Of a stretch of 64,000 nt of DNA, positions 2,763-46,424 are shown one piece after another. The notes beneath the pieces were generated by a model. The model was given only the letters and a program-made list of their open reading frames with translations, was not told where the DNA came from and searched no databases. Origin of the DNA: a virus; IMG/VR virus record IMGVR_UViG_3300033571_012928, positions 2,586-66,585 of that record; one strand, given 5' to 3'. How positions within the stretch are numbered: the first letter of the stretch is position 1; each line of letters starts with the position of its first letter. The position numbers were made by a program, and so were the translations under genes.

Positions 2763-3011
2763 ATGAGAAAGTTCTTATACTTTAGTGCACCATGGTGTGG
2801 TCCATGTAGAATGTTCGGTCCTGTAATGGATGAACTCGGCGAGACAATGCCAGTTGAAAAGATTAGTATTGATGAAAATACAGACTTAACTAATCAATAT
2901 GGTATTCATTCTATACCAACTGTAGTATTAGTAGAAAACGAAGCTGAGATTTGGAGAAATGTAGGTGTAACATCAAAAGCAGCATTAATTGAAGCATATA
3001 ATGGAAAATAA
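2763..3011 (+). CDS. thioredoxin-like protein
   Basis: WCGPC active-site motif in FSAPWCGPCRMF; ~80 aa Trx fold length. Confidence 0.8.
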   Translation: MRKFLYFSAPWCGPCRMFGPVMDELGETMPVEKISIDENTDLTNQYGIHSIPTVVLVENEAEIWRNVGVTSKAALIEAYNGK

Positions 3012-3786
3012 AAAACCAGGTCGTATTGCCGACTATAGCAAAAAATTACCTATTTTAGAAATTTATACCTGCGTTCAATCCGAAGGTTCTAGACAAGGTA
3101 GACCTACCGTAGCAATTCGTGTTACTGGTTGTACTCATAGATGTTGGTTTGGAGAAGGCGGATGGTGCGATTCTTGGTATACTAGTATTCATCCTGAAAA
3201 AGGAATTTATTGTTTCATTGACATTATTAAGATCTATGACGAAAATCCACATATTACAGAAATGATGTTAACAGGTGGATCTCCTACAATGGTACCAGAT
3301 CTAGTAAATGAATTGACTCATTTTTGTCATGAACGTGAGATTATAATGACAATTGAAACAGAAGGTAGTCATTTTATTCAAACTGATTATCCAATTGATT
3401 TGATTAGTTTATCACCTAAATTTACAAATTCAATTCCTAAGTTAGGTGTATTGACTCCAATAGGTAAAGAAGTAGATCAAAAAATGATTGATCAACATAA
3501 CAAGTTTAGGTTGAATTATTCAGCTATCATTGAAACACTTAAGTATCATAAAGACTATCATTATAAGCCAGTATGGGATGGTACAGAGAATGGTCTAAAA
3601 GAAATTGAAGATTTTAGAAGTTTAATGAACATTCCTAAAAGTAAAACATGGTTAATGCCTGCGGGAGATACTAGAGAAACATTAGTTGAAATGTATCCTA
3701 AGTCAATTGAAATTTGTATGAAAATGGGTTACAATTGGACCGGTAGGGATCACATTATAGCCTATGACACTCGCCGAGCTGTTTAA
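2989..3786 (+). CDS. queE: 7-carboxy-7-deazaguanine synthase (QueE)-like radical SAM protein
   Basis: N-terminus LPILEIYTCVQSEGSRQGRPTVAIRVTGC parallels B. subtilis QueE IPVLEIFGPTIQGEG...FVRTAGC; Cys cluster C-THR-C...W-CDS. Confidence 0.65.
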   Translation: MKHIMENKKPGRIADYSKKLPILEIYTCVQSEGSRQGRPTVAIRVTGCTHRCWFGEGGWCDSWYTSIHPEKGIYCFIDIIKIYDENPHITEMMLTGGSPTMVPDLVNELTHFCHEREIIMTIETEGSHFIQTDYPIDLISLSPKFTNSIPKLGVLTPIGKEVDQKMIDQHNKFRLNYSAIIETLKYHKDYHYKPVWDGTENGLKEIEDFRSLMNIPKSKTWLMPAGDTRETLVEMYPKSIEICMKMGYNWTGRDHIIAYDTRRAV

Positions 3787-4946: not shown

Positions 4947-5342
4947 ATGAATTTATTATCAACACACCCAGTTAAAAAATTAGATTTAGGATTCCACGGT
5001 AATTTATTCGGAGGTAAATTACTTTCATGGGTAGACGCTGCGGTATCAGCTTATGCAATGGAAAAGTGCAGAACACAAAATATGATTACTGTAGCAATCG
5101 ACGAATGTGTGTTTAAGAAGCCAGCTAAAGAAAAAAACTTAGTTAAAATCTACGCAGAAATGACTAAGGTAGGTAATACATCAGCTACCTTTAAAGTAGA
5201 GGCAAGAGCATATAATGTATTTAGAGGAGATGAAGTTCTTTTGTTAGCTACGAACATGACATTTGTTAGAGTAGATGATGAAGGAGTTCCTATTTCAATT
5301 TCACAATCAGTTAAAGATCAGTTTAACAAACCAAAAAAATAA
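4947..5342 (+). CDS. hotdog-fold acyl-CoA thioesterase-like protein
   Basis: LDLGFHGNLFGGKLLSWVDAAVSAYAM...TFKVEA pattern typical of 4HBT/YbgC hotdog thioesterases. Confidence 0.6.
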   Translation: MNLLSTHPVKKLDLGFHGNLFGGKLLSWVDAAVSAYAMEKCRTQNMITVAIDECVFKKPAKEKNLVKIYAEMTKVGNTSATFKVEARAYNVFRGDEVLLLATNMTFVRVDDEGVPISISQSVKDQFNKPKK

Positions 5343-5343
5343 T

Positions 5344-5718
5344 ATGTACGCGACATCAAATTCAACATTAGTAGCATCAGGCTTAACCGGAACTAACATT
5401 ACCAGTATTAACGGTACCGGAATAAGCGGTTTTACTACCAGTTCACCATCTACTACTATTAGTGGTAATTTATTAGTAGACAGTTTATCGATTTCACCAA
5501 AAAACACAAACAAATCAATTATGCAAAACAAAGTAGCAGTTTTCAAAGTAACAAGAGACGAAGACGAAAAAGTCGTTAAAACACAATTTCTAAAAGAAAT
5601 GTGGGTAGAAACCAAAAACGGACAATCAGTAGATTTCCAAGTAGCTAGAGACAAAGATTTAGCTGATTATGAAATGTCTGATTTAGTTATTAAAACAATT
5701 TTATCAGTATCATTTTAA
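5344..5718 (+). CDS. hypothetical protein (start moved to ATG 5344)
   Basis: The track ORF 5275.. overlaps the upstream gene; the in-frame ATG at 5344 immediately follows the upstream stop. Confidence 0.5.
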   Translation: MYATSNSTLVASGLTGTNITSINGTGISGFTTSSPSTTISGNLLVDSLSISPKNTNKSIMQNKVAVFKVTRDEDEKVVKTQFLKEMWVETKNGQSVDFQVARDKDLADYEMSDLVIKTILSVSF

Positions 5719-6038
5719 TGTCAGAAAAGAATCGTTTTGCAAAGCCATTAGGTGACCGAGTGTTACTTAAGAAGCCGCAGGATAATGAACAAGAAGAGAA
5801 AACAGCCTCAGGGATTTATATTCCTGAGACTGTATCTCATGAAAAAGTTCAATACACAACTGTAGTAGCTGTAGGCGAGGGATTGTTTACTCAAAACGGA
5901 GTTCCAATTCCAATGTCAGTTAAAGTAGGTGATACTGTTATTATTCCTCCATATCACCAAGGGCAAGGAGTTAAAATGGAAGGCGAAGATTATATAATCT
6001 TACGTGAGTCAGAAATTTTAATGGTTGTTCGAAATTAA
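5718..6038 (+). CDS. GroES-like co-chaperonin (Cpn10 / T4 gp31 analogue)
   Basis: KPLGDRVLLK...EEKTASGIYIP...TVVAVGEG...VKVGDTVII...GEDYIILRESEILMVV aligns with GroES along its full length. Confidence 0.85.
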   Translation: MSEKNRFAKPLGDRVLLKKPQDNEQEEKTASGIYIPETVSHEKVQYTTVVAVGEGLFTQNGVPIPMSVKVGDTVIIPPYHQGQGVKMEGEDYIILRESEILMVVRN

Positions 6039-6077
6039 TTTGGAATTCTGAAAAATAGATCTTATATTAATAGTATG
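6039..6077 (+). promoter_or_regulatory. class-A promoter-like element
   Basis: TTTGGAATTCTGAAAAATAGATCTTATATTAATAGT immediately upstream of the folE-like start. Confidence 0.4.
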
Positions 6078-6716
6078 AAAGAATTGCTTAAGTATGCAAA
6101 TTGGTCTATTCCTAGATCAGACGAAGAGAAAAAGCACATGATTGAAAATGCTGCTTTACACTATGGTAACTACATGACAGCGTTAGGTATTGATTGGGAG
6201 AATGATCCTAATTCATCTGATACTCCGATGCGTGTAGCAAAAGCATTTGTAAATGATTTAGCACAAGGATGTTATACAGATGCTCCTAAAATTACAGCAT
6301 TTGATAACTTAGATGGGTATGACGGTATTGTATTTCAAGGTAATATCGATGTTAAGTCGTTTTGCAGTCATCATCATTTGCCGTTTGTAGGACATGCACA
6401 TGTAGCTTATATTCCATCTAAAGAAGGCAAAGTAATAGGATTGTCAAAATTAAATAGAATTGTAGAATACTTTGCTCGTAGACCTCAAGTGCAAGAAAAT
6501 TTGACTATGCAAATTCATGATTACATTAATAGTGTATGTGAGGGTAATGCAGGTGTAGCAGTAATGGTTGAGGCTAATCATATGTGTGCCTGTGTAAGAG
6601 GAGTTCGTCATGATTCAACAATGATGACATCTAAAATGTCAGGTGCGTTTAAAGAAGATGGAAATGCTCGTTCAGAGTTCTATAAGTTTGTAGAAAAATT
6701 AGATAGAAACAAATAA
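6075..6716 (+). CDS. folE: GTP cyclohydrolase I
   Basis: [18 protein letters not shown] and ...MCACVRG... are diagnostic FolE Zn-binding and active-site segments. Confidence 0.9.
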
Positions 6717-7046: not shown

Positions 7047-7463
7047 ATGTACGGAAAAAACGTTTGGTATGGAAGAGAAGTAGAAGGCAGATTGTCTGAT
7101 CTTCAAACGGTATTTGTCAGAAAAGGTGATTTACCTTTAGATCATGTAGAATACCCTCACATCTATTTTACAATTGAATACATAGCCGATTGTTGTAAAA
7201 ACAATCAATGGACAATTATTCATAAACTTTTAGAAACTAAAAAAATAGTTACTATTGAAGCTAACGCTGAAGTATTTGAAAAGATACCTCAGTCAGTATT
7301 TAACAGAGTTCATATTCTATATAGAATACAAGATCCTTTCTTTGAAAGACTGAAAAAGACAGATACATTGTCTATTGATGCGGGTTGGTATCGTTGTCAT
7401 CAAATCATGAAATGCAATTTGCAACAAATTGTACCAGATGATTATAAATTTGATTATCTATGA
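7047..7463 (+). CDS. hypothetical protein (weak PTPS-like H..YFT segment)
   Basis: ORF directly preceding GT-B-like paralog A. Confidence 0.45.
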   Translation: MYGKNVWYGREVEGRLSDLQTVFVRKGDLPLDHVEYPHIYFTIEYIADCCKNNQWTIIHKLLETKKIVTIEANAEVFEKIPQSVFNRVHILYRIQDPFFERLKKTDTLSIDAGWYRCHQIMKCNLQQIVPDDYKFDYL

Positions 7464-8497
7464 GCACAATCTATATAGTAGAACTAGAACCAATTGAAAG
7501 TAGATATACTGGAGAATGGAAGACACATGTACCTCAGATTATCAAAGAAGAAATTACAAAAAGAAACTTAGACACTAAACTAGTAGTAATTTCAGGTACG
7601 AATAAAATACCTAAAGCAACTACCCCAGGTGCATTTATTAACTTTGGTGGTACTAACATGTATAAGTCATCTCAGGCAATGGCAATAGCTGAGATGTTTA
7701 CATTAGGTAAAATTCAGCCCGGAGATAAGTTTTTGTATACTGATGCATGGAATCCTACAATTCTTCAAATCAAGTATATGTCTCAATTATTACAAATTCC
7801 AGTTGAGATACATGGTTTATGGCATGCAGGTAGTTACGATCCAAATGACTTTTTAGGTAGATTAATGTCTGATGAAAAATGGGTTAAATCAACCGAAGAA
7901 GCATTAGCATATGCTATTGATAAGAACTATTTCGCAACTAGTTATCATTGGAATATATTTCCTCACGTAGCTCCAGAGCAAACACAAATTGTAGGATGGC
8001 CGATGGAGTATTTAAAAGATACAATCTATGAGGTTGATAAAGTAGAAGACATTATTCTTTTTCCTCATAGAATATCAGTTGAAAAACAACCTGAACTATT
8101 CAGAGAATTAGCTAAACGTAATCCACAATACAAATGGATTATGTGTCAAGAAGAAAACTTAACTAAAGCTGAGTATCATGATTTGTTGAGTAGAGCAAAA
8201 ATAGTATTCTCAGCTAATCTTCAAGAAACATTAGGTATATCATGTTATGAAGGAGCATTAGCAGGTGCGTTGCCATTAGTGCCAGATAGATTAAGTTATT
8301 CTGAAATGTATACAGATGCATTTATGTATCCAGATAGTGCTACGATCGAAGAAATTGAAAGTATAATTCATAATATGATGTCGACATATGCAACATATCA
8401 TAAGTATGCATTACCGACCCTGTTAAAAAAATTAGATCCGTTTTTCTCAAGTCAAGAATTAGTTAACAATTTATTAGAAAATGAAAATACTTTTTGA
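7460..8497 (+). CDS. putative GT-B-fold glycosyltransferase, paralog A
   Basis: C-terminal EGALAGALPLVPD resembles the GT1 Ex7E / G-x-P motif; clear paralogy with the ORF at 12316 (WNPTILQIKY...HGLWH vs WTTNIPQIKS...YGFWH). Confidence 0.5.
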   Translation: MSTIYIVELEPIESRYTGEWKTHVPQIIKEEITKRNLDTKLVVISGTNKIPKATTPGAFINFGGTNMYKSSQAMAIAEMFTLGKIQPGDKFLYTDAWNPTILQIKYMSQLLQIPVEIHGLWHAGSYDPNDFLGRLMSDEKWVKSTEEALAYAIDKNYFATSYHWNIFPHVAPEQTQIVGWPMEYLKDTIYEVDKVEDIILFPHRISVEKQPELFRELAKRNPQYKWIMCQEENLTKAEYHDLLSRAKIVFSANLQETLGISCYEGALAGALPLVPDRLSYSEMYTDAFMYPDSATIEEIESIIHNMMSTYATYHKYALPTLLKKLDPFFSSQELVNNLLENENTF

Positions 8498-8987
8498 TGA
8501 GTTCAAATTAGAAAGAGCCGTTGGTACATTAGGTAATGTACTTGAACAGTTCCATGTTAAAAAATACATGCACGAACCTGCAGTATTTATAGGAGTGCAA
8601 AACGGAAGCTTTATGTTTTTTGCTGACTTGGTTCGTAGAACAGGATTGCAAACACAAGTTGACTTTATACGAGTAAAATCATATAATGGAACTACACAAG
8701 GTGATATTAATATGATTTATGACATTGAAATGGACGTTGAGGGTAAAGTAGTATATGTAGTAGATGACATTATCGAATCAGGAAATACTATGAAGTTTTT
8801 ACTAGAACATTTCAAATCATTAGGGGCAAAGGATGTATATTCCGTTGCTCTATTACGAAGAAAAGAAACTACATTTAAAGTTGATTTTCATGCTTTAGAT
8901 GTAGAGCAGTCCGATTGGTTAATCGGATATGGTTTAGACGATGTAGACGGATTTTTTAGACATCATCCGCGAGTTTACATAAAATAA
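8481..8987 (+). CDS. purine (HGPRT-like) phosphoribosyltransferase
   Basis: VYVVDDIIESGNTMKF is the type-I PRTase PRPP-binding motif; 168 aa. Confidence 0.75.
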   Translation: MKILFDEFKLERAVGTLGNVLEQFHVKKYMHEPAVFIGVQNGSFMFFADLVRRTGLQTQVDFIRVKSYNGTTQGDINMIYDIEMDVEGKVVYVVDDIIESGNTMKFLLEHFKSLGAKDVYSVALLRRKETTFKVDFHALDVEQSDWLIGYGLDDVDGFFRHHPRVYIK

Positions 8988-9046
8988 TAGTTTGAATAGA
9001 TACTAGGCATATTTTTAAAACAATTTAACAAAAAAGGAGAAAAATT

Positions 9047-9331
9047 ATGGTAATTACATCATTTGTTTTAGGTATGCTTACAGTTATTGGTATTGCGCTA
9101 GTTATATTAGTAGTTTTAGGTATGGTTAAGATTTACAAACAAGCAGATCAAATTAGATCACTCGTACGAGACATCGAACTTACAAATTCTAATGCCGAAC
9201 AATGGATTAGAACACTAGAAGAAACAATGTGCAGAAACTTTGATGAGGTTCGAAGAGAATATTCATCATATGTTGATTCACGTATTGACAAACTACATAC
9301 CAAGACCAATAAGGAGGTCTTGAAAGGATAA
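9047..9331 (+). CDS. small membrane protein
   Basis: One N-terminal TM helix; unusually strong SD AAAAAGGAGAAAAATTATG. Confidence 0.55.
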   Translation: MVITSFVLGMLTVIGIALVILVVLGMVKIYKQADQIRSLVRDIELTNSNAEQWIRTLEETMCRNFDEVRREYSSYVDSRIDKLHTKTNKEVLKG

Positions 9332-9397
9332 TTTATTTTGCCTAGTATCTATCAAATTATTTTGATTTTACAGTTTTATTCATTATATTAATATTAC

Positions 9398-11968
9398 ATG
9401 TATCAAAATATAGCATTTGAAAAGACAAAGAATTTAGTACACATTTGGGATGACGAAAAAGGTCATTTTACGCTTCCCTATAAAAAATATGCTTACCGTA
9501 AAAACAATAACGGTAAGTATGTTGCGTTAGATGGTAACAGAGTAGAAAAGGTTTATGATTGGGACGATTCTGATGTTCAGCGTGGTCTTATTTATGAATC
9601 TGATATTGGACCTGAAACTAGAACATTGATTGATTTATATTATGAATCAGATGATATAAGTAAAGGACATCGTGAAATGTATCTAGATATTGAGGTTGCA
9701 ACTGAAGGTGGGTTTTCTGATACCGAAGAAGTATGGCAGCCATTAACATCTATTTCATTTTATGATAGAGCAGGCGATCAATACGTTGCAATTTTAGTAG
9801 ATCCGGATAATAAGGTTAAGTCGAAGGTTTCGGATAAATTGATTTTAGAGTCTGTTAAAACAGAAAGAGAGTTAATTCAAAAGTTTCTTAATCATTATGC
9901 ATCTGTAGCACCTACAATCATCACAGGATGGAATATAGAGTTTTTCGATATTCCATATTTGTACAATAGAATTAGAAAAGTATTAGGTACAAAAGAAGCA
10001 GATAGATTATCTCCGATCAATGACGTAATTTGGCTTAAACACAGAAACCGTTATAAACTTCAAGGTGTGGCTTGTTTAGACTATATGGCATTGTATAAGA
10101 ACTTTACCTATTCAGAAGAATCAAGTTATTCATTAGAAGCTATTTCGCAAAAAGAATTAGGTAAAGGTAAAATTCAATATGAAGGTACATTAGATCACTT
10201 GTATCAAACAGATATTGATAAGTTCATCGAATATAACATTAATGACGTTCGATTGGTATATGAGTTAGATTTGAAGCTTCAGTTTTTAGATCAGGCTCGA
10301 GGTGTATGTCATAAAGGCCATGTATCATATGATGACATTTATTTCACAACAAGATATTTGGATGGAGCATGTTTAACTTACATGAAACGTTTAGGTATTG
10401 TAGCACCTAATAGAAAAAATAGAATACCAGCAACTGTAGGAACAGAAGAAGAAAATCATTCAAATGACTTTGCAGGTGCATTTGTAATGGATCCAAAGCC
10501 AGGTGTTTATAAATGGATATTTGACGAAGATATGTCATCTCTGTATCCATCTATTATTAGAACATTGAACATTTCTCCAGAAACTAAAATTGGTCGAGTT
10601 GAGAATTGGGATATGGTAAAAGGAGCGTTCTTAGCTAATCAAGATAATAGTTTATCAGTTAAACTTAAGTCTGGTATTAAACAATTGTCATTTAGTGTAA
10701 CAGAGTTTCGTAAGTATTTAGTAGATAACAAGTATACAGTATCTGCAATTGGTGTTGTATATGATTCTCAAAAGCCAGGTATTATTCCGTCTATTTTGGA
10801 AACATGGATGGCAGAACGAGAAGAGTTCCGTGCATTGGCAAAGAAATACGGTAAAGAAGGTAATATGGAGTTAGCTAAGTTTTTTGATGCTAAACAGTTA
10901 ACTGCAAAGATTATTAATAACTCGTTATATGGAGGATTGGGTGCTCCTGGATTTAGATTCCACGATTTAGATAATGCAGAATCTATTACATTGACTGGTC
11001 AGTCAGTAATTAAGCATGCAATGTCAAAAGGCAATGAATGGTTTATTAAGCAAACAGGAGTAGATAAACAATATGTAATTTATGTAGATACAGATTCTAA
11101 CTATTTCTCAGCTGAGCCTATTATAGAGTTAATGGAAAAGAAATTAGGTAAAACAATGTCGAGAGAAGAAAAAATTGACATTACCTATAAAACATCTCAG
11201 GTAGTAGAAAAGTTTATTAATGATTCATTTACTCCATATGCTAAGCATGTATTAAATTCAGATAAACATTTCTTAACGATTAAACAAGAATATGTATCAG
11301 AATCAGGTATATGGATTGCAAAGAAACGTTATGCTCAAAAGATTATTTCTGAAAAAGGTGTATTAATATCTGATTTAACCAAAGGAGCTAAAGAATGGAA
11401 ACTCGATGTAAAAGGAATGGATGTAATTCGTTCTAACTTCCCTAAAGCATTTAGAGAGTTCATGTCAGGTATTTTGATTGATATTTTAAATCTAGTAGAT
11501 AGAAAAGTAATAGATGATAAGGTATTAGCATTTAGAGAGGACATGAAACAAAAAGACATGATTGATATTATGTTCCCGACAGGTGTTAAAGAATTATCAA
11601 AATATCAAATCAAAAAAGATGCGGATCAAATGTTTGCTGATAGAGTTAAAGCTACTCCGGCTCACGTAAAGGCGGCGTTGGTCTATAATGATTTATTAGA
11701 TTATTTTAAGATTACATCAGCTCAACCAATTGGAAATGGAGAAAAGATCAAATGGACTTATTTGAAATCAAATCCATATGGTATTGATGGTATTGCGCTA
11801 AAAGGATTTGAAGATCCTGAAAAGATTGTTAAAATAGTTGAAGAGTATATTGATTATGATAAAATCTTTAGATCGTCATTAGAAAATAAATTGCAAGACT
11901 TCTATAATGCATTGAGTTATGGTAAAGTTCCTGTAAATGATACATTAAATAGTTTTTTTAGTTTTTAA
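9398..11968 (+). CDS. family-B DNA polymerase
   Basis: Exo I LDIEV, Exo II GWNIEFFDIPYL, motif A DEDMSSLYPSII, motif B KIINNSLYGGLG, motif C YVDTDS. Confidence 0.95.
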   Translation: MYQNIAFEKTKNLVHIWDDEKGHFTLPYKKYAYRKNNNGKYVALDGNRVEKVYDWDDSDVQRGLIYESDIGPETRTLIDLYYESDDISKGHREMYLDIEVATEGGFSDTEEVWQPLTSISFYDRAGDQYVAILVDPDNKVKSKVSDKLILESVKTERELIQKFLNHYASVAPTIITGWNIEFFDIPYLYNRIRKVLGTKEADRLSPINDVIWLKHRNRYKLQGVACLDYMALYKNFTYSEESSYSLEAISQKELGKGKIQYEGTLDHLYQTDIDKFIEYNINDVRLVYELDLKLQFLDQARGVCHKGHVSYDDIYFTTRYLDGACLTYMKRLGIVAPNRKNRIPATVGTEEENHSNDFAGAFVMDPKPGVYKWIFDEDMSSLYPSIIRTLNISPETKIGRVENWDMVKGAFLANQDNSLSVKLKSGIKQLSFSVTEFRKYLVDNKYTVSAIGVVYDSQKPGIIPSILETWMAEREEFRALAKKYGKEGNMELAKFFDAKQLTAKIINNSLYGGLGAPGFRFHDLDNAESITLTGQSVIKHAMSKGNEWFIKQTGVDKQYVIYVDTDSNYFSAEPIIELMEKKLGKTMSREEKIDITYKTSQVVEKFINDSFTPYAKHVLNSDKHFLTIKQEYVSESGIWIAKKRYAQKIISEKGVLISDLTKGAKEWKLDVKGMDVIRSNFPKAFREFMSGILIDILNLVDRKVIDDKVLAFREDMKQKDMIDIMFPTGVKELSKYQIKKDADQMFADRVKATPAHVKAALVYNDLLDYFKITSAQPIGNGEKIKWTYLKSNPYGIDGIALKGFEDPEKIVKIVEEYIDYDKIFRSSLENKLQDFYNALSYGKVPVNDTLNSFFSF

Positions 11969-11971
11969 AAT

Positions 11972-12319
11972 ATGAAGACAACAGTTATAGTTAAGTTACA
12001 AATCGATGGCTGCCACAATTTTCCAAAAGCAGCTGAGTTATTTCCTGAGGTAGATTTCTTATCTCACAGACACAGGCATATGTTTCATTTTACTGTTGCA
12101 GTAAAAGTTACACATTCTGATAGAGATAAAGAATTTATCATGTTGAAAAGAGATATTATCGACTATATTAATGGAGAGTACTTTGATGACTTTTCTAGAA
12201 CTTGCGAATTTGGAGCTCGTTCTTGTGAAATGTTAGCAGAAGAAATTCTTAAGGAATTTGATGCGGAATGGGTAGAGGTATGGGAAGATAATGAGAACGG
12301 GGCACGCGTTGAGTTATGA
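11972..12319 (+). CDS. QueD/PTPS-family protein (second copy)
   Basis: 115 aa; IDGCHNFP ... HRHRHMFHFTVAV resembles QueD AAHRLP ... HGHSFMVRLEI. Confidence 0.5.
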   Translation: MKTTVIVKLQIDGCHNFPKAAELFPEVDFLSHRHRHMFHFTVAVKVTHSDRDKEFIMLKRDIIDYINGEYFDDFSRTCEFGARSCEMLAEEILKEFDAEWVEVWEDNENGARVEL

Positions 12320-13329
12320 CAGTTTACGTAGTCTCTGACTTAAATCATATCATTGACAAAGATTCTTGGGAGACTCATGTATCATCAACTATTCTAGGCT
12401 ACTTAGAAGTTCTAACACAAGACCTACAAGACAGGCAATATAATGTTACTAACATAACAGACCTGTACAGTATAGAACTTCTAATCAAGTCTAACGTAAT
12501 AGTATCAGATGATATATTTGTATTTACCAATGCATGGACTACGAATATACCCCAAATCAAGTCATGGTGTGAGTACTATGAAATTACTCCAAAAATGTAT
12601 GGATTCTGGCATCAAGATATTGTATCTGCACCAGACCATACATATCCATGGCGTAAGTCATTTAATTTATCGATATGCAAATGTTTACATGGTAACTTTT
12701 TTATTTGCGAAGAACATGCCAGAGCATTTAAACACAGTATAAGTAAAGATTTGAAATCGATTCAAGTATGTAAGTTTCCAATGGAGTATTTAGGATTGGA
12801 AGTTGGTAAATTAAAAAACAACTTTAAAAAATCTGACATGTTAGTATTTCCATTTTACAATTGGGAAGAATATCATGAATCTATATTCTATGATTGGAAA
12901 CGAACATTAAAAGGAGTTCAGCCTGTATTTTGCAATGAAAAGGAACGTTTATCTAGACCGCACTTGTTAAATCAAATTGCAGCTGCGAAAGTAGCATGGT
13001 TGCCATATGATATGCCAAATTTAGGACAACAAATCTATGAATGCTTATTATTGGGTACAATTCCTATGGTACCTGATTATCATGGCTTTGAAAAGTTTGT
13101 ACCTAAAGATTTTATGTATCCAGCAGAATGGACTTCAAACGTATTAAAGTATGCAGCACATGCTCCTGATCTAATAGGAATGATCTATGAATTCACAAAT
13201 AACTATGAAGCATATAAATCTTTAATAGATCAACAAGTAGAGCATTTAACAGAGCAGTATTATGATTCGGAAGATTTTTTAAATAAAATATTTGGAAATC
13301 TAAATAAAATTCAATATATTAACAAATAA
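12316..13329 (+). CDS. putative GT-B-fold glycosyltransferase, paralog B
   Basis: Paralog of 7460..8497; ECLLLGTIPMVPD motif. Confidence 0.5.
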   Translation: MTVYVVSDLNHIIDKDSWETHVSSTILGYLEVLTQDLQDRQYNVTNITDLYSIELLIKSNVIVSDDIFVFTNAWTTNIPQIKSWCEYYEITPKMYGFWHQDIVSAPDHTYPWRKSFNLSICKCLHGNFFICEEHARAFKHSISKDLKSIQVCKFPMEYLGLEVGKLKNNFKKSDMLVFPFYNWEEYHESIFYDWKRTLKGVQPVFCNEKERLSRPHLLNQIAAAKVAWLPYDMPNLGQQIYECLLLGTIPMVPDYHGFEKFVPKDFMYPAEWTSNVLKYAAHAPDLIGMIYEFTNNYEAYKSLIDQQVEHLTEQYYDSEDFLNKIFGNLNKIQYINK

Positions 13330-13335
13330 CAAAAT

Positions 13336-14544
13336 ATGCAAAATACAGATCCAAAAAAAGTAGTTTACTTTCCATCTTTATCTTCAGGTGCATTTGCAAC
13401 TGTACTAAAGAAAGATGCAGAAATTAAACCAGGCGTACCATATCGCTTTTGGGATAAACGAACTCCTGAAGAATGGCGATATCCTTATTTTCTAGTGACA
13501 GCAGGTCATTACTACAAGAAACCTACATTGAGAGCCGATTGGGGTTTAGATAAAGATTGTTTAGTATTTGGTGATTCCGGAGGATTCCAAATTGCGACAG
13601 GTGCGTTGAAATGGGATGTAGCTTTAAGAGATACTATTTTTCAATGGTTAGAAAACAATTCAGATTTAGCAGCTAACTTAGATATTCCACCTCGTACTAA
13701 GTATGAGGGTAGATTTCAAGAAGCATTAGATTTTAGTATTGATAACTTTAAATACTTTGAAAAGAATCAATCTGGTAAGACTAGATTCTTGAATGTATCT
13801 CAAGGTTCAAATCCTAAAGAAAGAGAAGTATGGTTTAATGCCGTTAAAGATTTTGAATTTCAAGGTTGGTCATTAGGAGGTAGTCGTCGTATTGTTGACT
13901 TGTTACATGGCATTGCATTAATGTTAGAACACAAAGAGTTTGATAAATTGCATAATACATGGGTACACGTATTAGGAGCATCTAAAGTATCTGACTTTTT
14001 AGTATATGGTAAACTTCAACAAATGTTTAATCAGTATACTGATAATAGAATTACATTGTCAACTGATAGTTCATCTCCAGGTCAGTATCCTATCTTTGGA
14101 CAAATGGTTTGGGATGCAGATTGGAGAAATCATATTTTTAACATGTTGTATTTTCCAAAAGATGGTACAGTTAAATATCCTTCAGAAGGATTAGTTCCTT
14201 CTTTGTTGAAACATCCAGGTTGGGATACATTAACATGGCCAATGATTGAAGAATTCAAGGGAGATGCAGCATTTAGAATGACATATCATAATTTGTATAT
14301 GTATGCTTATACATGTGCGAAGGCTGAAGAAATTGTTACAATGGCACCTCCGAAGACAATTGAAGATATTGTATCAAAAGATATGGCAGTTGTATTGCAG
14401 TCAATAGAAGATATGTTTCATTCTTCAAATCCAATGCAGGTATTTGAAAGTTACAGAGCATTCTATGTAAAGATTGGTGGTGATAATTTACCTATTTATT
14501 CAATTGAAGCAGCTGCAGAATTTTTTGACTTTTCAACTACATAA
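13336..14544 (+). CDS. tRNA-guanine transglycosylase family protein, DpdA-like
   Basis: DCLVFGDSGGFQIATGAL matches the TGT catalytic LTDSGGFQV segment; 402 aa. Confidence 0.6.
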   Translation: MQNTDPKKVVYFPSLSSGAFATVLKKDAEIKPGVPYRFWDKRTPEEWRYPYFLVTAGHYYKKPTLRADWGLDKDCLVFGDSGGFQIATGALKWDVALRDTIFQWLENNSDLAANLDIPPRTKYEGRFQEALDFSIDNFKYFEKNQSGKTRFLNVSQGSNPKEREVWFNAVKDFEFQGWSLGGSRRIVDLLHGIALMLEHKEFDKLHNTWVHVLGASKVSDFLVYGKLQQMFNQYTDNRITLSTDSSSPGQYPIFGQMVWDADWRNHIFNMLYFPKDGTVKYPSEGLVPSLLKHPGWDTLTWPMIEEFKGDAAFRMTYHNLYMYAYTCAKAEEIVTMAPPKTIEDIVSKDMAVVLQSIEDMFHSSNPMQVFESYRAFYVKIGGDNLPIYSIEAAAEFFDFSTT

Positions 14545-15719: not shown

Positions 15720-16355
15720 ATGTACATTTACTTAATTACAAATTTAGTCAATAATAAAGTATACATCGGACAATCTTCAAGAAATTGGAATGATACGTTG
15801 GATTACTATGGTAGTGGATCTTTAATAAAAAAAGCAATTGAATCGCATGGAATTGAAAACTTTAAAAAAACATTGTTAGAAACATGTTACGATAAAGAAG
15901 AATTAGATGATGCGGAACGATATTGGATATCTCATTACCGAAATAAACTTAACTATACATTGTATAATATAACAGAAGGCGGTCAAGGCGGAGTTACGTA
16001 TACAAAAGGAAGTTTAGTATATGAACAGTGTAAACATAAATTAGGTTGTTCAGGGACTAATAATCCTGGCTCTAGACCTGAAGTAATTGAAAAACGAGTA
16101 CTTACATATAGCAATAACATTGAAAATGGGTTTGTTCCGACATCGGGTAAGATACATGGAAATTATAAAGGTAAGTTAGAACAAGTACATAGCAAATACA
16201 AAGGCGGTCCGCCGTCTAGTAATGCTAGAAAAGTTGTAATTGATGGTATAGAGTATAATTCATTACGAGAGGCAAGTCGCGCATTAGACATAGCAGCCGA
16301 AACAATCGCTAGAAGATGTAAATTGGATAAATTTAAAAAATATAACTTTATATAA
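15720..16355 (+). CDS. GIY-YIG homing endonuclease
   Basis: N-terminal YIYLITNLVNNKVYIGQS ... YYGSG matches the GIY-YIG core; sits between the clamp and clamp-loader genes. Confidence 0.8.
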   Translation: MYIYLITNLVNNKVYIGQSSRNWNDTLDYYGSGSLIKKAIESHGIENFKKTLLETCYDKEELDDAERYWISHYRNKLNYTLYNITEGGQGGVTYTKGSLVYEQCKHKLGCSGTNNPGSRPEVIEKRVLTYSNNIENGFVPTSGKIHGNYKGKLEQVHSKYKGGPPSSNARKVVIDGIEYNSLREASRALDIAAETIARRCKLDKFKKYNFI

Positions 16356-19431: not shown

Positions 19432-20382
19432 ATGAGTAAGAGTTCATTATCGACATTGTTTAGAGCCGTCGCCCCCGAGAAGAAACCCGGAGATGTTACA
19501 ATATCATATAGTCAATTTTCAATGTGGGCTACATGTCCATTAAAATGGAAATTGAACTATGTAGATCGTTATAGACTCGGAGGGCCTTCCATCAATACGT
19601 GTTTCGGAACATCGTTTCACGAAACACTTCAATGGTATTTACATACCATGTATACAAAATCAGTTAAAGAAGCAGATCAATTAGATTTGCAATCATGTTT
19701 GTTAGAACAAATGCAAACAAATTATGTGTTAGATGTTGAAAGAAATAACAACGAACATTTTTCTAACAAACATGAATTAGCTGAGTTTTATAATGATGGC
19801 GTTGCTATTTTAGATTGGTTGAAGAAAAGGCGCGGTGATTACTTTAAAGCATCTGGGTATGAATTGATTGGTATTGAGTTGCCACTTTACATTCAAGCAT
19901 CTAAATCTAATACATGTGTTAAGATGAATGGATTTATTGATATAGTTATTCGTGATATTGTTAACGATAAAATTATTATCATAGACATTAAAACATCTAC
20001 CGGCGGATGGAATAAGTATCAAAAGAATGATAAGCTTAAAGCATCTCAATTGGTATTGTATAAGTCTTATTTCGCTGAACAATATGGATATGATGTAGAA
20101 AAGATTGACATTCAGTATTTTATTGTTAAACGTAAATTGATTGAAGACTTTGCTTATCCACAAAAAAGAGTTCAATTGTTTGAACCCGCATCTGGTAAGC
20201 CTACAAGAAAAAAGCTTCATATGGAAATTGATACGTTTGTAAGTACATGTTTCAATACCGACGGTAGTTATAATAAAGAAAACAATTACTTAGCCATTGC
20301 GGGCAAAAATGCTAAGAATTGTAAATACTGCGAATTTGCAGAGAGAGATGATCTTTGCCCAAAAGCAAATAGAATCAAATGA
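19432..20382 (+). CDS. PD-(D/E)XK nuclease, Cas4/RecB-like with Cys4 cluster
   Basis: GFIDIVIRD ... IIDIKTS is a D...D/ExK core; N-terminal Cys (CPLKWK) plus C-terminal CKYCEFAERDDLC follows the Cas4 Fe-S pattern. Confidence 0.65.
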   Translation: MSKSSLSTLFRAVAPEKKPGDVTISYSQFSMWATCPLKWKLNYVDRYRLGGPSINTCFGTSFHETLQWYLHTMYTKSVKEADQLDLQSCLLEQMQTNYVLDVERNNNEHFSNKHELAEFYNDGVAILDWLKKRRGDYFKASGYELIGIELPLYIQASKSNTCVKMNGFIDIVIRDIVNDKIIIIDIKTSTGGWNKYQKNDKLKASQLVLYKSYFAEQYGYDVEKIDIQYFIVKRKLIEDFAYPQKRVQLFEPASGKPTRKKLHMEIDTFVSTCFNTDGSYNKENNYLAIAGKNAKNCKYCEFAERDDLCPKANRIK

Positions 20383-20834
20383 TTACAAGATACCAAAAAA
20401 GTTTAGTTAAAGGAGATCCTGAAAAAATTAAAATAGCTATTATCGGATCCAGAATTTATGAGAACAAAAGAAAGATCAAAGATACTATTTTTAAACTAAA
20501 ACAAATGTTCGGCGATAAGTTAGAAATAGTATCTGGAGGTGCAGGATCGGGTGCGGATAAGTATGCTAAAAAATATGCATTGGAATTAGGCGTGGATTAT
20601 AAAGAGTTCAATCCTGCATTTACTAATAAGAATTTATATTCAGTAATGCCAGAGTCTTATTATGGTAAGCAATATCACGTAACGCAGTTATTCGCACGTA
20701 ATGAACTAATAGCGAAGTATTGTGATAAGATGATAGCATTTATTCATACAGCTTCGACAACTAGTGGATCCGATCATGCAGTAAAAATGGCACTCAAACA
20801 TAAAAAGCCAGTAGTAATTATAAACGAGTTATGA
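20379..20834 (+). CDS. DprA/Smf-like (SLOG superfamily) protein
   Basis: IAIIGSRIYENK...IVSGGAGSGADKYAKKYALELG resembles the DprA Rossmann-like GSR...SGxARGxD segment. Confidence 0.5.
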   Translation: MITRYQKSLVKGDPEKIKIAIIGSRIYENKRKIKDTIFKLKQMFGDKLEIVSGGAGSGADKYAKKYALELGVDYKEFNPAFTNKNLYSVMPESYYGKQYHVTQLFARNELIAKYCDKMIAFIHTASTTSGSDHAVKMALKHKKPVVIINEL

Positions 20835-21080: not shown

Positions 21081-22466
21081 ATGAAGAAAAAGAAAATACT
21101 TTTATTATCGGATGACCTTCGAGTTCATTCAGGGATTGGAACTATGTCCCGTGAAATTGTTCTAAACACAGTTAAAGAATTTGATTGGATTCAATTAGCA
21201 GCTGCGATTCAACATCCTGAAACAGGAAAGATGTTTGATTTGTCAGAAGAAGTTGCTAAAGTAACTGGCGTAAAAGATGCTAACGTAAAATTAATTCCAT
21301 TTGATGGATATGGCAACCAAGATGTTGTTAGAGAGTTAATTGCAGTAGAACGTCCAGATGCTATTTTGCACTTTACCGATCCTAGATTTTGGGGTTGGCT
21401 GTATCAAATGGAACATGAGATTCGTCAAGAAATTCCGTTATTTTACTATACTATTTGGGACGATAATCCAGCTCCTAGATGGAATAGACCATTTTATGAA
21501 TCTTGCGATTTATTAATGTGCATTTCAAAACAAACTAAAGCTTTAGTTACTGATGTATTGAAAGATTCAAATTATCAGCCATGGCAAATTACTTATGTGC
21601 CTCATGGTATTCCTCACGATATTTTCTTTCCATTAAATGAACAGCATGAACAGTGGAATGAATTTCAAGAATTCAAAAAGAGAATGTTAGGTGAGAAAGA
21701 ATATGACTTTATTATGTTCTACAATGCTCGAAACATTCGTCGTAAACATACACCGGATCTAATGTTAGGTTTTGAAGAATTTGTAAGTTCATTACCAAAA
21801 GAAAAACAAGATAAGTGTTTAATGTTATTGCATACAGAACCTGTAGATGAAAATGGTACGGATCTAGTTGCTGTAGCTGAAGAATGTTGCAAAACATCAA
21901 AAGTTCAATTTACTAATATTAAGCCAATATCAACTAAAGAATTAAATTTCTTGTATAACATGTCTGATATTACTGCTAATATTGCTTCAAATGAAGGATT
22001 TGGATTAGGTACAGCTGAATCGGTAATGGCAGGTACTCCAATTATAGTTAATGTAACAGGTGGAATGCAAGACCAATGTGGATTTAAAAATGAATCAGGT
22101 GAGTATTTAACAGAAGATGATTATACTCCAGCATGGCCTACAAATGCTAATGGTACATATACAGAACATGGAGAATGGGTTAAACCAATCTTCCCTAAAG
22201 CACGAACATTACAAGGTTCGCCAATGACGCCTTATATATTTGATGACATTGCAGATTATCATGAAGCTGCTAGTGCTATTAAGTATTGGTATGAAAAAAC
22301 AGATTCTGAAAGAACAGAAGCTGGTCAAAAAGGACGTGACTGGATGTTATCAGTACAAACAGGTATGTCAGCAAAAGAAATGGGTAATCGATTTATCAAA
22401 GACATGAACGTTGCATTTGATAATTGGACACCAAGATCACGTTACGAATTAGTTACAGTAAAATAA
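21081..22466 (+). CDS. GT1-family (GT-B) glycosyltransferase
   Basis: EGFGLGTAESVMAGTPIIV is the GT1 EX7E / G-x-P signature. Confidence 0.65.
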   Translation: MKKKKILLLSDDLRVHSGIGTMSREIVLNTVKEFDWIQLAAAIQHPETGKMFDLSEEVAKVTGVKDANVKLIPFDGYGNQDVVRELIAVERPDAILHFTDPRFWGWLYQMEHEIRQEIPLFYYTIWDDNPAPRWNRPFYESCDLLMCISKQTKALVTDVLKDSNYQPWQITYVPHGIPHDIFFPLNEQHEQWNEFQEFKKRMLGEKEYDFIMFYNARNIRRKHTPDLMLGFEEFVSSLPKEKQDKCLMLLHTEPVDENGTDLVAVAEECCKTSKVQFTNIKPISTKELNFLYNMSDITANIASNEGFGLGTAESVMAGTPIIVNVTGGMQDQCGFKNESGEYLTEDDYTPAWPTNANGTYTEHGEWVKPIFPKARTLQGSPMTPYIFDDIADYHEAASAIKYWYEKTDSERTEAGQKGRDWMLSVQTGMSAKEMGNRFIKDMNVAFDNWTPRSRYELVTVK

Positions 22467-22467
22467 T

Positions 22468-23742
22468 ATGGAAAAACGAATAACAGTTGTAGTACAGTCG
22501 CCGATCGCTACTAGATCGGGATATGGAGAAAGATCTCGAGATTTTGTTAGAGCATTAATTGCATTAGACAAATACGATGTAAAACTTATTCCGACTCGTT
22601 GGGGTAGTACGCCGATGAATGTATTATCAGAATCAGATACGGATATCACATCTAGAATAGTTACTCAATTAACCGAGCAACCGGATGTATACATTCAAAT
22701 TACTATTCCTAATGAATTCCAGGCTATTGGTAAGTATAATATCGGCGTAACAGCTGGTATTGAAACAACCCAATGTTCGCCTCAGTTTTTAGAAGGATGT
22801 AATAGAATGAACTTAGTATTGGCTTCATCGGAACATACTAAGTGGGTATTTGAAAACAGTAAGTATGATATCATGAATGAACAAACAAAACAAAAGGTAG
22901 GTGAATTAAAATTAACTACGCCAGTTGAGGTATTGTTCGAAGGTATTAACTTAGATATATTCAAGAAATTAGATTCTGTTGGTAATACTGAATTAAACAA
23001 AACAATGGCAGGTATTAAAGAAGACTTTTGCTATTTGTTTGTAGGACATTGGTTGCCAGGAGATTTTGGTGAAGATAGAAAAAATGTATCAGGATTGATT
23101 CGTACATTCTTTGAAGCATTTAAGAATAAAATGAATCCACCGGCATTGGTATTAAAGACTTCATTAGGAGCTCCATCTATTATGGATAGGTTAGAAATTG
23201 AAAAGAGAATCAAACTTATTAAACAAAGTGTTGATGCTAAATCATTGCCTCCAATTTATTTGATTTACGGAGATTTAACCGATCAAGAAATGAATGAACT
23301 TTATAACCATCCTAAGGTTAAGGCACATGTATCGTTCACAAAAGGCGAAGGATTTGGACGTCCATTAGCAGAAGCTGCTATTACGGGTAAGCCAATTATG
23401 GTTTCTGATTTTTCAGGACATAAAGATTTCTTACCGGATGATATGATATACTACATACCAGGTCAAATGACAAATGTTCATCCATCTGCTGCAAATGATT
23501 GGTTAATGAAAGAAGCTCAGTGGTTTACAGTAGACTATGGATATGCAATAGGATTGTTTAAAGACATTGAAAAGAACTATAAAAAGTCTTTAGAAAAGTC
23601 TAGAAAAACATATCATCATATTAAAACTAATTTTTCCTTTGATAAAATGAAAGAAAAATTAGGTTCTATCTTAACTGAAAGATTACCAGAGTTTCCTAAG
23701 CAGGTACAATTGAAACTTCCTAAACTAAAGAAGGTAGAATGA
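22468..23742 (+). CDS. GT1-family (GT-B) glycosyltransferase
   Basis: GEGFGRPLAEAAITGKPIMVSD GT1 signature. Confidence 0.65.
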   Translation: MEKRITVVVQSPIATRSGYGERSRDFVRALIALDKYDVKLIPTRWGSTPMNVLSESDTDITSRIVTQLTEQPDVYIQITIPNEFQAIGKYNIGVTAGIETTQCSPQFLEGCNRMNLVLASSEHTKWVFENSKYDIMNEQTKQKVGELKLTTPVEVLFEGINLDIFKKLDSVGNTELNKTMAGIKEDFCYLFVGHWLPGDFGEDRKNVSGLIRTFFEAFKNKMNPPALVLKTSLGAPSIMDRLEIEKRIKLIKQSVDAKSLPPIYLIYGDLTDQEMNELYNHPKVKAHVSFTKGEGFGRPLAEAAITGKPIMVSDFSGHKDFLPDDMIYYIPGQMTNVHPSAANDWLMKEAQWFTVDYGYAIGLFKDIEKNYKKSLEKSRKTYHHIKTNFSFDKMKEKLGSILTERLPEFPKQVQLKLPKLKKVE

Positions 23743-24344
23743 AAATAAGTTACGCAGTAACTGTTTGTAACGAAATCAATGAAATTCAAGAATTAATACC
23801 TCATCTTTTGGAATTTAAGCGTTCCCAGGATGAGGTAGTTGTTCTGTATGATAATAATGGAACAAAAGAAGTATTTGATTATTTACAATCAGTTGAAGGG
23901 ATCAAATTAGTATGGGACAATTTCGATGGTCACTTTGCTAATTGGAAAAACAAACTAAACTTGCTTTGCAGTGGCGATTATATTTTTCAGTTAGATGCTG
24001 ATGAATTAGTAAGTCATGCTTTTATTGAGGTACTACCTGAACTGTTAGAAGAAAATTCAGATTGTGATTTATTTTGGGTACCTAGAAGAAACATCGTTCT
24101 AGGACTAACTCAAGCACATATTGATAAATGGGGTTGGAATGTAAATGAAGAAGGCTTAGTTAATTGGCCTGATCCTCAATCTAGAATTTACAGAAATTCA
24201 GAATCAATTCATTGGGAAAACAAAGTACATGAAAAAATTGTAGGTATTAAAACAGTAGCTGTATTGCCAGCCGAGTTTAATATTTTACATGTTAAAGATA
24301 TCGAACGTCAAGAAAGACAAAACAATTATTACAGTACACTATGA
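23739..24344 (+). CDS. GT2-family glycosyltransferase
   Basis: N-terminal ISYAVTVCNE ... and a QLDADE-type DxD. Confidence 0.55.
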   Translation: MKISYAVTVCNEINEIQELIPHLLEFKRSQDEVVVLYDNNGTKEVFDYLQSVEGIKLVWDNFDGHFANWKNKLNLLCSGDYIFQLDADELVSHAFIEVLPELLEENSDCDLFWVPRRNIVLGLTQAHIDKWGWNVNEEGLVNWPDPQSRIYRNSESIHWENKVHEKIVGIKTVAVLPAEFNILHVKDIERQERQNNYYSTL

Positions 24345-25180: not shown

Positions 25181-25824
25181 AAACAGTAGCTATTTTCGGA
25201 GGAACAGGCGGATTAGGTAGTCAGTTAGTTCCTATGTTACAGGAAAAATATAACGTTATAGCATTAGGTTCAAAAGATATAGATGTAACTAGTTTTACAG
25301 CTGTAAATGAATTTTTTAACTCTCATGCTATTGATATTGTCATTAACTTAAGTGGATATAATTCAGATAGTTTTTTACATAAATACAATGAATCAAATTA
25401 TCATGCAATACAAAAGCAAGTTGATATCAATATTATGGGTACGATTAACATCGCAGTTGCATGTATAAATCATATGCGACGTAACAACTACGGTCGTATC
25501 ATATTAACATCATCAGTGCTAGCCGATCATCCCGTAGTTAGTACTAGTATCTATGCTGGATGTAAAGGATTCATAGATAGTTTAACTAAAACAGTAGCTA
25601 TCGAAAATGCAGGTAAAAATGTTACATGTAATAGTTTACAATTAGGATACTTTGATGGAGGATTGACATATAAAATACCAGAAGAATTCCGTAATAATGT
25701 TAAAGAAACAATACCAGCAAAACGTTGGGGTTCGATTGAAGAATTATATAATACAATTGAGTTCATTATAAATACAGGATATTATACAGGTCAAAATGTT
25801 AACATAAGTGGAGGAATCATTTAA
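25177..25824 (+). CDS. short-chain dehydrogenase/reductase (SDR)
   Basis: VAIFGGTGGLGSQL glycine-rich NAD(P) motif and YAGCK (YxxxK) catalytic motif. Confidence 0.75.
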   Translation: MKTVAIFGGTGGLGSQLVPMLQEKYNVIALGSKDIDVTSFTAVNEFFNSHAIDIVINLSGYNSDSFLHKYNESNYHAIQKQVDINIMGTINIAVACINHMRRNNYGRIILTSSVLADHPVVSTSIYAGCKGFIDSLTKTVAIENAGKNVTCNSLQLGYFDGGLTYKIPEEFRNNVKETIPAKRWGSIEELYNTIEFIINTGYYTGQNVNISGGII

Positions 25825-29634: not shown

Positions 29635-29637
29635 TTT

Positions 29638-45017: not shown

Positions 45018-45019
45018 TT

Positions 45020-46423: not shown

Positions 46424-46424
46424 A

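Follow-up and report, generated by a model that had tools for sequence, protein, structure and literature searches.

A GT4-like glycosyltransferase gene in a QueC-less 7-deazaguanine module of phages, and its possible role in glycosylating a modified guanine in DNA

Introduction

Does a phage that may exchange the guanine of its DNA for a 7-deazaguanine also place a sugar on it? The question is raised by positions 7047-14544 of a 64,000-nt stretch of virus record IMGVR_UViG_3300033571_012928 (the window, meaning the whole stretch that was analysed). Two paralogous glycosyltransferase-like proteins, referred to as GT-A and GT-B (names of the proteins, not of folds), are encoded there around a family B DNA polymerase (PolB), together with DpdL, a putative 7-carboxy-7-deazaguanine (CDG) decarboxylase, a small protein called X, a phosphoribosyltransferase (PRTase) and a DNA guanine transglycosylase-like (TGT-like) protein. 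More than 90 loci, spread over unrelated phage lineages, have the glycosyltransferase (GT) gene adjoining the DpdL or TGT-like gene, and it very probably belongs to the deazaguanine module. The region may represent the central part of a system that replaces guanine in DNA by 7-deazaguanine without QueC, and to which a glycosyltransferase step has been added, a reading held with somewhat less than even confidence; that GT-A glycosylates the deazaguanine in DNA is given a chance just short of even. A sequence-only reading of the region had proposed deazaguanine insertion followed by sugar transfer; synteny ties the GT to the deazaguanine genes, while the sugar on DNA stays inferred.

Results

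Gene content of the locus

The window was evenly AT-rich (GC content ~0.32) with a single coding strand, and no near-identical relative of the region was found by megablast among 50,697 phage records. All eight open reading frames (ORFs) of the region were confirmed on the plus strand at the coordinates and in the order given by the sequence-only reading. They are listed below with the three pathway genes that precede them.

1915-2382, +: QueD (6-carboxytetrahydropterin synthase); Pfam PTPS 1.9e-15, TIGR03367 QueD 9e-7
2989-3786, +: QueE (radical-SAM 7-carboxy-7-deazaguanine synthase); TIGR03365 QueE 1.6e-14
6075-6716, +: FolE (GTP cyclohydrolase I), the first step of the pathway; PF01227 2.3e-51, phrog_2197 1.9e-63
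7047-7463, +: X, a small conserved protein of 138 aa
7460-8497, +: GT-A, 345 aa, predicted active GT4-like enzyme of the GT-B fold
8481-8987, +: HGPRT-like purine PRTase; PF00156 7.6e-21, TIGR01203 3.2e-32 (under its cut-off)
9047-9331, +: small membrane protein with a hydrophobic N-terminal helix, an uncertain member of the module
9398-11968, +: PolB, T4 gp43-like; PF00136, PF03104, phrog_262 3.9e-178
11972-12319, +: DpdL, 115 aa, a QueD paralog; LSHRHRHMF, phrog_17812 1.2e-29
12316-13329, +: GT-B, 337 aa, degenerate paralog of GT-A; BLASTP to GT-A 6e-21
13336-14544, +: TGT/DpdA-like DNA guanine transglycosylase, 402 aa; both catalytic-Asp motifs, profile match to E. coli Tgt

Three gene junctions overlapped (7460-7463, 8481-8497 and 12316-12319), and in the first of these the stop codon of X overlaps the start codon of GT-A. 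PolB is a context gene of this T4-like phage and is flanked by the module.

Linkage of the glycosyltransferase gene to deazaguanine genes

Local tblastn and clustering of ORFs were applied to eighty IMG/VR loci fetched with a GT profile, and linkage was counted over the 66 loci whose sequence extends 3 kb or more upstream of the GT gene. DpdL was encoded within 400 bp of the GT gene in 56 of the 66 loci, while the TGT-like gene and X were present within 5 kb in 63 and 62 loci, respectively. FolE, QueE and PolB were each found in about 60 loci, PolB lying near the module in 62. The commonest co-located gene families included no nucleotide-sugar enzymes.

Orthologs of GT-A were detected by tblastn in Sinorhizobium phage Phosso (47%), the PA5oct group (45%) and Acidovorax phage ACP17 (36%), with further matches in Xanthomonas, Burkholderia and Erwinia jumbo phages and in Synechococcus phage BUCT-ZZ01. 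The genes for the TGT-like protein, GT and DpdL are consecutive in PA5oct, with QueE close by; the order is QueD, FolE, a 132-aa protein, TGT-like, GT, DpdL and QueE in ACP17, DpdL, GT, FolE and QueE in Phosso, and QueE, XGPRT, QueD, FolE, TGT-like, DpdL and GT in BUCT-ZZ01. PA5oct DNA resists cleavage at several G-containing restriction sites, and carries a modified G of an unidentified kind (PMC12191111).

The whole gene order of the region is repeated in two sister contigs (L085 and L086) at 74-94% protein identity, and the order GT-A, PolB, DpdL, GT-B and TGT-like recurs in at least 12 more diverged loci; the arrangement is therefore not due to chance. A GT gene was found in only 12 of 185,579 species-representative (GTDB) genomes, mostly on short contigs of metagenome-assembled genomes, so the family is essentially viral. 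Eleven of these 12 loci carry DpdL and/or a TGT-like gene, the exception being a 4.6-kb contig with only the GT and FolE.

GT-A is a predicted GT4-like glycosyltransferase

The AlphaFold2 model of GT-A was confident (pLDDT 89, pTM 0.88) and agrees with two Rossmann-like domains separated by an inter-domain cleft. A Foldseek search of the PDB returned 142 matches at E<=0.001, and the top ones were all GT4-type enzymes of the GT-B fold, including MshA, BshA, PimB', glycogen synthase, sucrose-phosphate synthase and SenB (E ~1e-10, TM up to 0.70); GtfA (4pqg) was also among the structural matches. The best match among viral structures (BFVD) was the ACP17 ortholog (TM 0.90). The T4 enzymes a-gt and b-gt were not among the 50 best-ranked matches listed in either the PDB Foldseek search or BFVD. 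The glycosyltransferase nature suspected from the sequence was thus upheld as to fold, which is GT-B and GT4-like rather than GT1-like or, on the matches listed, like that of the T4 enzymes. When PDB sequences were searched with HMMER profiles for GT, the TGT-like protein and X, only noise came back, so that fold and profile-profile methods were needed.

Residues R204, K209 and E256-x7-E264 were among those invariant over 32-34 aligned homologs, and all four were retained in A-type copies only 28-30% identical, including those from genomes that also carry B-type copies. They are assigned to the diphosphate-binding Arg/Lys pair and the EX7E motif that mark GT4 enzymes such as PimA and MshA. The C-terminal motif that the sequence-only reading had called GT1-like does exist, and it contains the second Glu of the GT4 EX7E motif instead. 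On its model and these residues, GT-A looks like a putative catalytically competent GT4-like glycosyltransferase of the GT-B fold. The family is large, with metagenomic homologs forming at least 8000 clusters at 90% identity, a few of which carry a precomputed PF00534 match, and no PHROG match was obtained for GT-A. A kinship with QTMAN/GTDC1 was also considered and not adopted, no match of the Pfam QTMAN_N type being found.

A distant homolog of GT-A (25% identity) in Xanthomonas phage PhiXhv-12 (L090, 4708-7942) adjoins GlmS and a GlcNAc-malate deacetylase of the BshB-like kind, and deazaguanine genes are missing from its surroundings. This neighbourhood resembles a bacillithiol-like logic in which GlcNAc is added and then deacetylated, and hints at UDP-GlcNAc as a donor in the wider family.

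GT-B is a conserved, probably non-catalytic paralog

The 345-aa and 337-aa proteins are paralogs, as had been noticed from the sequence: BLASTP aligned GT-A and GT-B at E=6e-21 with 23% identity over 275 residues, and the C-terminal motif YE(G/C)xLxGxxPxVPD is real and common to both. GT-B retained only 16 of the 53 family-invariant residues. The substitutions R204->Y, K209->Y, E256->P and D95->N leave E264 as the sole donor-site residue, two conserved loops of the N-terminal domain are deleted (residues ~46-72, and AGSYDP at 123-128), and no Pfam Glycos_transf_1 match was found. These losses, with R204->Y, K209->Y/F and E256->P, were shared by 11 of 11 detectable B-family members.

The ratio of non-synonymous to synonymous substitution rates (dN/dS) of GT-B against the two sister contigs was 0.17-0.23, the most relaxed in the module and yet a sign of purifying selection; GT-B is therefore not a pseudogene. 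Its gene lies invariably between DpdL and the TGT-like gene. Since GT-B has lost the GT4 donor-binding residues, the presence of two glycosyltransferases is unlikely. Of the two GT-B-like proteins that the sequence-only reading had envisaged as glycosyltransferases, only GT-A looks competent, and the locus probably encodes one putative catalytic glycosyltransferase and one non-catalytic paralog.

The deazaguanine pathway is of the DpdL type

The window QueD and QueE were 58% and 61% identical, respectively, to those of Cellulophaga phage phiST, and DpdL was 41% identical to phiST DpdL (E 2e-21). These identities, together with the GC content, hint at a Bacteroidota host. DpdL is defined by LxxxHRHxF in place of the QueD motif CxxxHGH, and is a proposed CDG decarboxylase (Cui et al. 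2023, PMC10516641). Residues 30-38 of the 115-aa protein, LSHRHRHMF, fit this signature. The protein, described earlier as a second QueD-like one, is indeed a QueD paralog, and by its signature it is DpdL, a putative CDG decarboxylase. Its dN/dS was 0.04-0.07.

No QueC PP-loop motif (SGGxDS) was found in the plus-strand, ATG-initiated ORFs of the window, nor in 3,100 ORFs from its first 20 kb and 83 related loci. A QueC-less pathway of the DpdL type should yield 7-deazaguanine or its 7-carboxy form. In phiST, dG is wholly replaced by 2'-deoxy-7-deazaguanosine (dDG). Expression of just dpdL and dpdA from ACP17 in E. coli did not yield dDG, from which its authors proposed that further enzymes were possibly required (PMC10516641).

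Genes for a 4HBT thioesterase and a GroES (Cpn10) homolog (4947-5342 and 5718-6038, both +) are interspersed among the QueE and FolE genes.

The transglycosylase-like protein

The identification of the last gene as TGT/DpdA-like held. The 402-aa protein contains the motifs GDSGGFQ (D80), NVSQGS, GWSLGG, HVLGASK and STDSSSP (D244), the family consensus at the last site being SFDCASP. D80 and D244 are presumed to be the two catalytic aspartates of TGT, in the equivalents of DSGGFQ and FDCxxP. A profile of 68 TGT-like family sequences aligned with E. coli Tgt over 187 columns spanning all motifs (hhalign 90.5%, E 1.3e-6), although the protein itself scored under the gathering cut-off of the Pfam TGT family (12.2 vs 26.3 bits, E 0.095). 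It is homologous to a 540-aa protein of PA5oct (1.5e-19) and to the 424-aa TGT-like protein of ACP17 (ASD50403), which is presumably the 'dpdA' expressed by Cui et al. phiST gp042 (DpdA3) matched the family weakly (hhalign 15%, E 0.0017), and phiST lacks DSGGFQ. Given the Tgt profile match and the weak similarity to DpdA3, the motifs and profiles identify the protein as a DpdA-like transglycosylase of uncertain subfamily.

A GroEL (Cpn60) gene lies less than 200 bp downstream of the TGT-like gene in two related contigs, L091 (3415-5019) and L093 (7283-8899).

Protein X and the phosphoribosyltransferase

X had no family match in Pfam, PHROG or NCBIfam. It has 485 close homologs, forming 173 clusters at 50% identity, and is a remote homolog of the 132-aa family of ACP17 (hhalign 84.6%, E 6.8e-6); the first gene of the region, listed as unknown by the sequence-only reading, is a conserved member of the module. 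X is a candidate for a QueE-like half-barrel fold without the Fe-S cysteines: neither a CxxxCxxC or Cx14CxxC Fe-S motif nor an invariant Cys was found among 34 homologs, and homology between X and QueE was not significant at the sequence level. Three metagenomic proteins (P0338, P0369 and P0381) are natural fusions with DpdL at the N-terminus and X at the C-terminus, the former matching DpdL at E 4e-23 to 4e-25 and the latter X at E 6e-12 to 8e-7. These fusions indicate that DpdL and X act together, probably as one unit. A requirement for X could explain the failed reconstitution of ACP17 DpdL and DpdA in E. coli.

The best NCBIfam match of the PRTase was the HGPRTase model TIGR01203 (E 3.2e-32, 111.6 bits, cut-off 150). 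Its phosphoribosyl pyrophosphate (PRPP) loop, VVDDIIESGNT, is present and retains an acidic residue at the site where HGPRT has its catalytic Asp, the one in contact with the purine N7. This fits a true purine, possibly guanine, as substrate. PRTase genes recur in the module, in 47 loci as one type and in 8-9 as the type of the window, and the module of BUCT-ZZ01 contains an annotated XGPRT.

Further along the window, genes for a Prs-like protein (Pribosyl_synth, 44169-45017), a nucleoside 2-deoxyribosyltransferase-like protein (PF15891 7e-37, 45929-46423) and a NAMPT-like protein (46493-47989) stand in a row on the plus strand. The Prs-like gene was considered as a PRPP source for the PRTase and was not adopted, as it may instead pair with its NAMPT-like neighbour in NAD (nicotinamide adenine dinucleotide) reconstitution; the genes at 44169-47989 may be an NAD-reconstitution anti-defence set.

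Other genes of the window

A glycan and nucleotide-sugar cluster of ~16 kb occupies 21081-36656 (+), 7 kb downstream of the module, with its genes back to back. It encodes two GT4-like proteins (461 and 424 aa), four GT2 enzymes, an SDR protein, a hexapeptide acyltransferase, a PIG-L deacetylase, a DUF6492 protein, an epimerase/dehydratase, a Polysacc_synt_2 4,6-dehydratase, two Methyltransf_24 proteins and an FkbM methyltransferase. Its first GT4-like gene was also present in related contig L091, and an additional GT2 gene lies at 52541-53254 (+). One possible role of the cluster is to provide GT-A with a special sugar donor; another is the glycosylation of structures of the virion or the host.

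The single-pass membrane protein at 9047-9331 (+) lies directly upstream of PolB; it has the same position in L085 and L086 and is absent in L093. T4 has the small membrane protein Imm at the corresponding site just upstream of its DNA polymerase gene. A GIY-YIG homing endonuclease gene (15720-16355, +; PF01541 2.4e-09, with an I-TevI DNA-binding domain) lies between the sliding-clamp and clamp-loader genes, and is a mobile insertion because these two genes directly adjoin in L085 and L086. Genes for an RNA ligase (PF09414, 48486-49625), a tRNA nucleotidyltransferase-like protein (PolyA_pol head domain, 53286-54044) and a SLOG/YspA (DprA-like) protein (20379-20834), all on the plus strand, concern RNA repair or nucleotide sensing and are unrelated to the finding.

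Discussion

Proposed pathway

By homology, FolE, QueD and QueE would convert GTP to CDG, and DpdL with X would turn CDG into the base for insertion, most likely 7-deazaguanine by analogy with phiST. The TGT/DpdA-like enzyme, again by homology, would swap guanine in phage DNA for this deazaguanine base. GT-A would then transfer a sugar from a nucleotide-sugar donor onto the deazaguanine already in DNA. The candidate acceptor is the exocyclic N2, the sole position with natural precedent: HuiG, a GT4-type enzyme, N-glycosylates the 2-amino group of the 7-deazaguanine base (PMC7439116; bioRxiv 2026.04.15.718813). BshA and MshA are also the structural neighbours of proven phage 5-hydroxymethylcytosine (5hmC) DNA glycosyltransferases (bioRxiv 2023.12.21.572611). 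GT-B may assist without catalysis of its own, for instance by binding DNA or the substrate, and the HGPRT-like enzyme may convert the guanine freed by the exchange to GMP/GTP, feeding the pathway and clearing a product inhibitor. DNA made in this way would be expected to withstand restriction enzymes, as well as other nucleases that read guanine.

Several observations weigh against this proposal. 7-Deazaguanine has no hydroxyl or amine at C7, and neither it nor its 7-carboxy form offers an obvious hydroxyl for a sugar, so that the acceptor atom is uncertain. phiST reaches full dDG with DpdL and its own DpdA3 and no GT or X within 7 kb; dDG as such can therefore be made without the two, an observation that is compatible with a further step and does not prove one. 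Close relatives of the window DpdL (75-89% identity) occur in the IMG/VR loci L110, L112, L114, L119 and L121, in the different order QueD-QueE-(PRTase)-DpdL-FolE, where neither a GT nor a TGT-like gene lies within 6 kb; the GT thus accompanies DpdL in some loci and not in others. GT-A scored under the gathering threshold of Pfam Glycos_transf_1 (15.6 vs 26.4 bits, E 0.012). Net charge and isoelectric point, considered as a hint of DNA binding, were uninformative, the protein being acidic as PolB and the TGT-like protein also are. The roles given to X, GT-B and the PRTase derive from their context only.

Alternative explanations

GT-A might instead act before insertion, in a huimycin- or tubercidin-like manner, its substrate being either 7-deazaguanine as a free base or a nucleotide that the PRTase has made; its product would be inserted by an enlarged TGT-like enzyme or would serve as a small molecule or nucleotide analogue in infection. 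This is considered unlikely, although HuiG glycosylates the free base (PMC7439116; bioRxiv 2026.04.15.718813) and tubercidin clusters without QueC join CDG, a PRTase and a decarboxylase (bioRxiv 2026.04.15.718813), which may be compared with the phage QueE, PRTase and DpdL. The nearest structural neighbours of GT-A (BshA, MshA and SenB) also take small-molecule acceptors, and the TGT-like proteins of GT-bearing phages have 400-560 aa against the 259 aa of phiST DpdA3. TGT enzymes read the 2-amino group and require a free N9, so a base glycosylated at N2 or N9 should, we infer, be a poor substrate; in addition, the module always lies in the replication gene block beside PolB, and the PRTase retains the acidic residue for contact with the N7 that a true purine has. 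Similarly improbable is an absence of any sugar in the DNA, with GT-A, GT-B and X acting as accessory or scaffold subunits for a DpdL or transglycosylase that makes plain dDG or its 7-carboxy counterpart (dCDG). It would account for the inactivity of ACP17 DpdL and DpdA alone in E. coli (PMC10516641), for the conservation of GT-B despite the loss of its catalytic residues, for the protein-level cooperation inside the module that the DpdL-X fusions represent, and for the lack of an obvious acceptor group on 7-deazaguanine. GT-A nevertheless keeps the full GT4 donor-binding set throughout a family that numbers at least 8000, even where identity falls to 28%, which would be unexpected in a purely structural protein, and phiST makes dDG without GT-A, GT-B or X.

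Two further explanations are very improbable. The sequence-only reading had offered, as its alternative, glycosylation by the GT-B-like proteins of a modified pyrimidine, such as 5-hydroxymethyl- or 5-hydroxy-cytosine or -uracil, in the style of the T-even phages. The GT-like genes do lie in a replication block, a position analogous to that of T4 b-gt; many other sugar enzymes are encoded at 21-37 kb of the window, and the phage 5hmC enzymes of the GT-B fold are also BshA/MshA-like (bioRxiv 2023.12.21.572611). Neither a thymidylate synthase nor a hydroxymethylase homolog was found among the ORFs scanned in the window, which is part of a genome, T4 a-gt and b-gt were missing from the 50 best-ranked structural matches listed, and the synteny is with the guanine pathway, the GT being linked to DpdL, TGT, FolE and QueE in unrelated phages; the pyrimidine alternative is accordingly disfavoured. 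Glycosylated 5-hydroxycytosine (RB69/DLP3) was also considered, and its source paper mentions none of the present phages, nor deazaguanine. There is just as little chance that GT-A and GT-B form part of the downstream glycan cluster and modify virion proteins or host envelope glycans, their deazaguanine neighbours being incidental. The 16-kb run of GT2, GT4 and nucleotide-sugar genes only 7 kb downstream would agree with this, as would the PhiXhv-12 homolog, whose neighbours are GlmS and a BshB-like deacetylase rather than deazaguanine genes. The GT gene, however, also adjoins DpdL and TGT in phages and contigs with no such cluster nearby, and nucleotide-sugar enzymes are missing from the most frequent co-located families.

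Comparison with known systems

Among the closest known systems is that of phiST (Cui et al. 2023, PMC10516641), which shares with the window FolE, QueD, QueE and DpdL, the lack of QueC, a TGT-superfamily enzyme adjoining DpdL, and a position beside the replicative polymerase. It differs in having no GT-like gene and no X, with MazG-like and AAA_18 kinase-like proteins instead, and its DpdA3 (259 aa), unlike the TGT-like protein of the window, lacks DSGGFQ and aligns weakly (hhalign 15%). The predicted deazaguanine clusters of ACP17 and PA5oct resemble the window in having GT-A orthologs (36-45% identity), DpdL, TGT-like and QueE as neighbours, and in ACP17 also X; unlike the window, they have a single GT without a degenerate paralog, the order TGT-GT-DpdL and another PRTase subtype. 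GT genes of the ACP17/PA5oct type are recorded as plain hypothetical proteins in most records.

HuiG, as predicted for GT-A, is a GT4-type enzyme of the GT-B fold encoded beside folE, queD and queE genes, and it puts GlcNAc on the 2-amino group of a 7-deazaguanine. Unlike the present module, it belongs to the secondary metabolism of actinomycetes, where its substrate is a free, O-methylated base derived from preQ0, and its cluster includes QueC and no transglycosylase. The T4 a- and b-glucosyltransferases and the phage 5hmC enzymes share with the present system the GT-B fold, the replication block and the decoration of a non-canonical base after synthesis, the last of which is a predicted feature here. 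Their acceptor is a hydroxymethyl group on cytosine, no specific similarity to the T4 enzymes was detected among the 50 best-ranked structural matches listed, and no hydroxymethylase was found among the window ORFs scanned.

In the streptococcal O-GlcNAc transferase GtfA-GtfB and the eukaryotic TGT QTRT1-QTRT2, an active enzyme is accompanied by a non-catalytic paralog of the same fold. GT-A and GT-B resemble these pairs in that a predicted active enzyme is kept with a probably non-catalytic paralog.

The DpdL/DpdA deazaguanine pathway is itself already known. The belief that its combination with glycosyltransferases was undescribed stood: no description was found in the literature searched, nor were the linked GT4-like family, the degenerate paralog, X with its DpdL fusion or the recurrent PRTase.

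Significance

Somewhat more tentatively than the pathway itself, it is suggested that a viral group inserts 7-deazaguanine into its DNA and then sugars it, by means of a GT4-like enzyme dedicated to the task, accompanied in certain lineages by a non-catalytic paralog, and of a DpdL-X base-tailoring unit. The cultured phages PA5oct, ACP17, Phosso and BUCT-ZZ01 carry the module, so that the question is directly testable. Even without a sugar in the DNA, three conserved unannotated components are defined (the GT family, X with its DpdL fusions, and the PRTase), and these offer a concrete explanation for the failed reconstitution of the DpdL pathway.

To our knowledge, all sugar-bearing bases of phage DNA are pyrimidines, and all 7-deazaguanines of DNA carry small C7 groups. 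If true, the proposal would give the first glycosylated purine in natural DNA, and DNA hypermodification would gain a new chemical class. The finding would concern a very large and almost exclusively viral group, including the Pseudomonas therapy-candidate phage PA5oct, and would bear on the evasion of restriction, CRISPR and type IV defence, on sequencing artefacts and on enzyme tools for DNA labelling.

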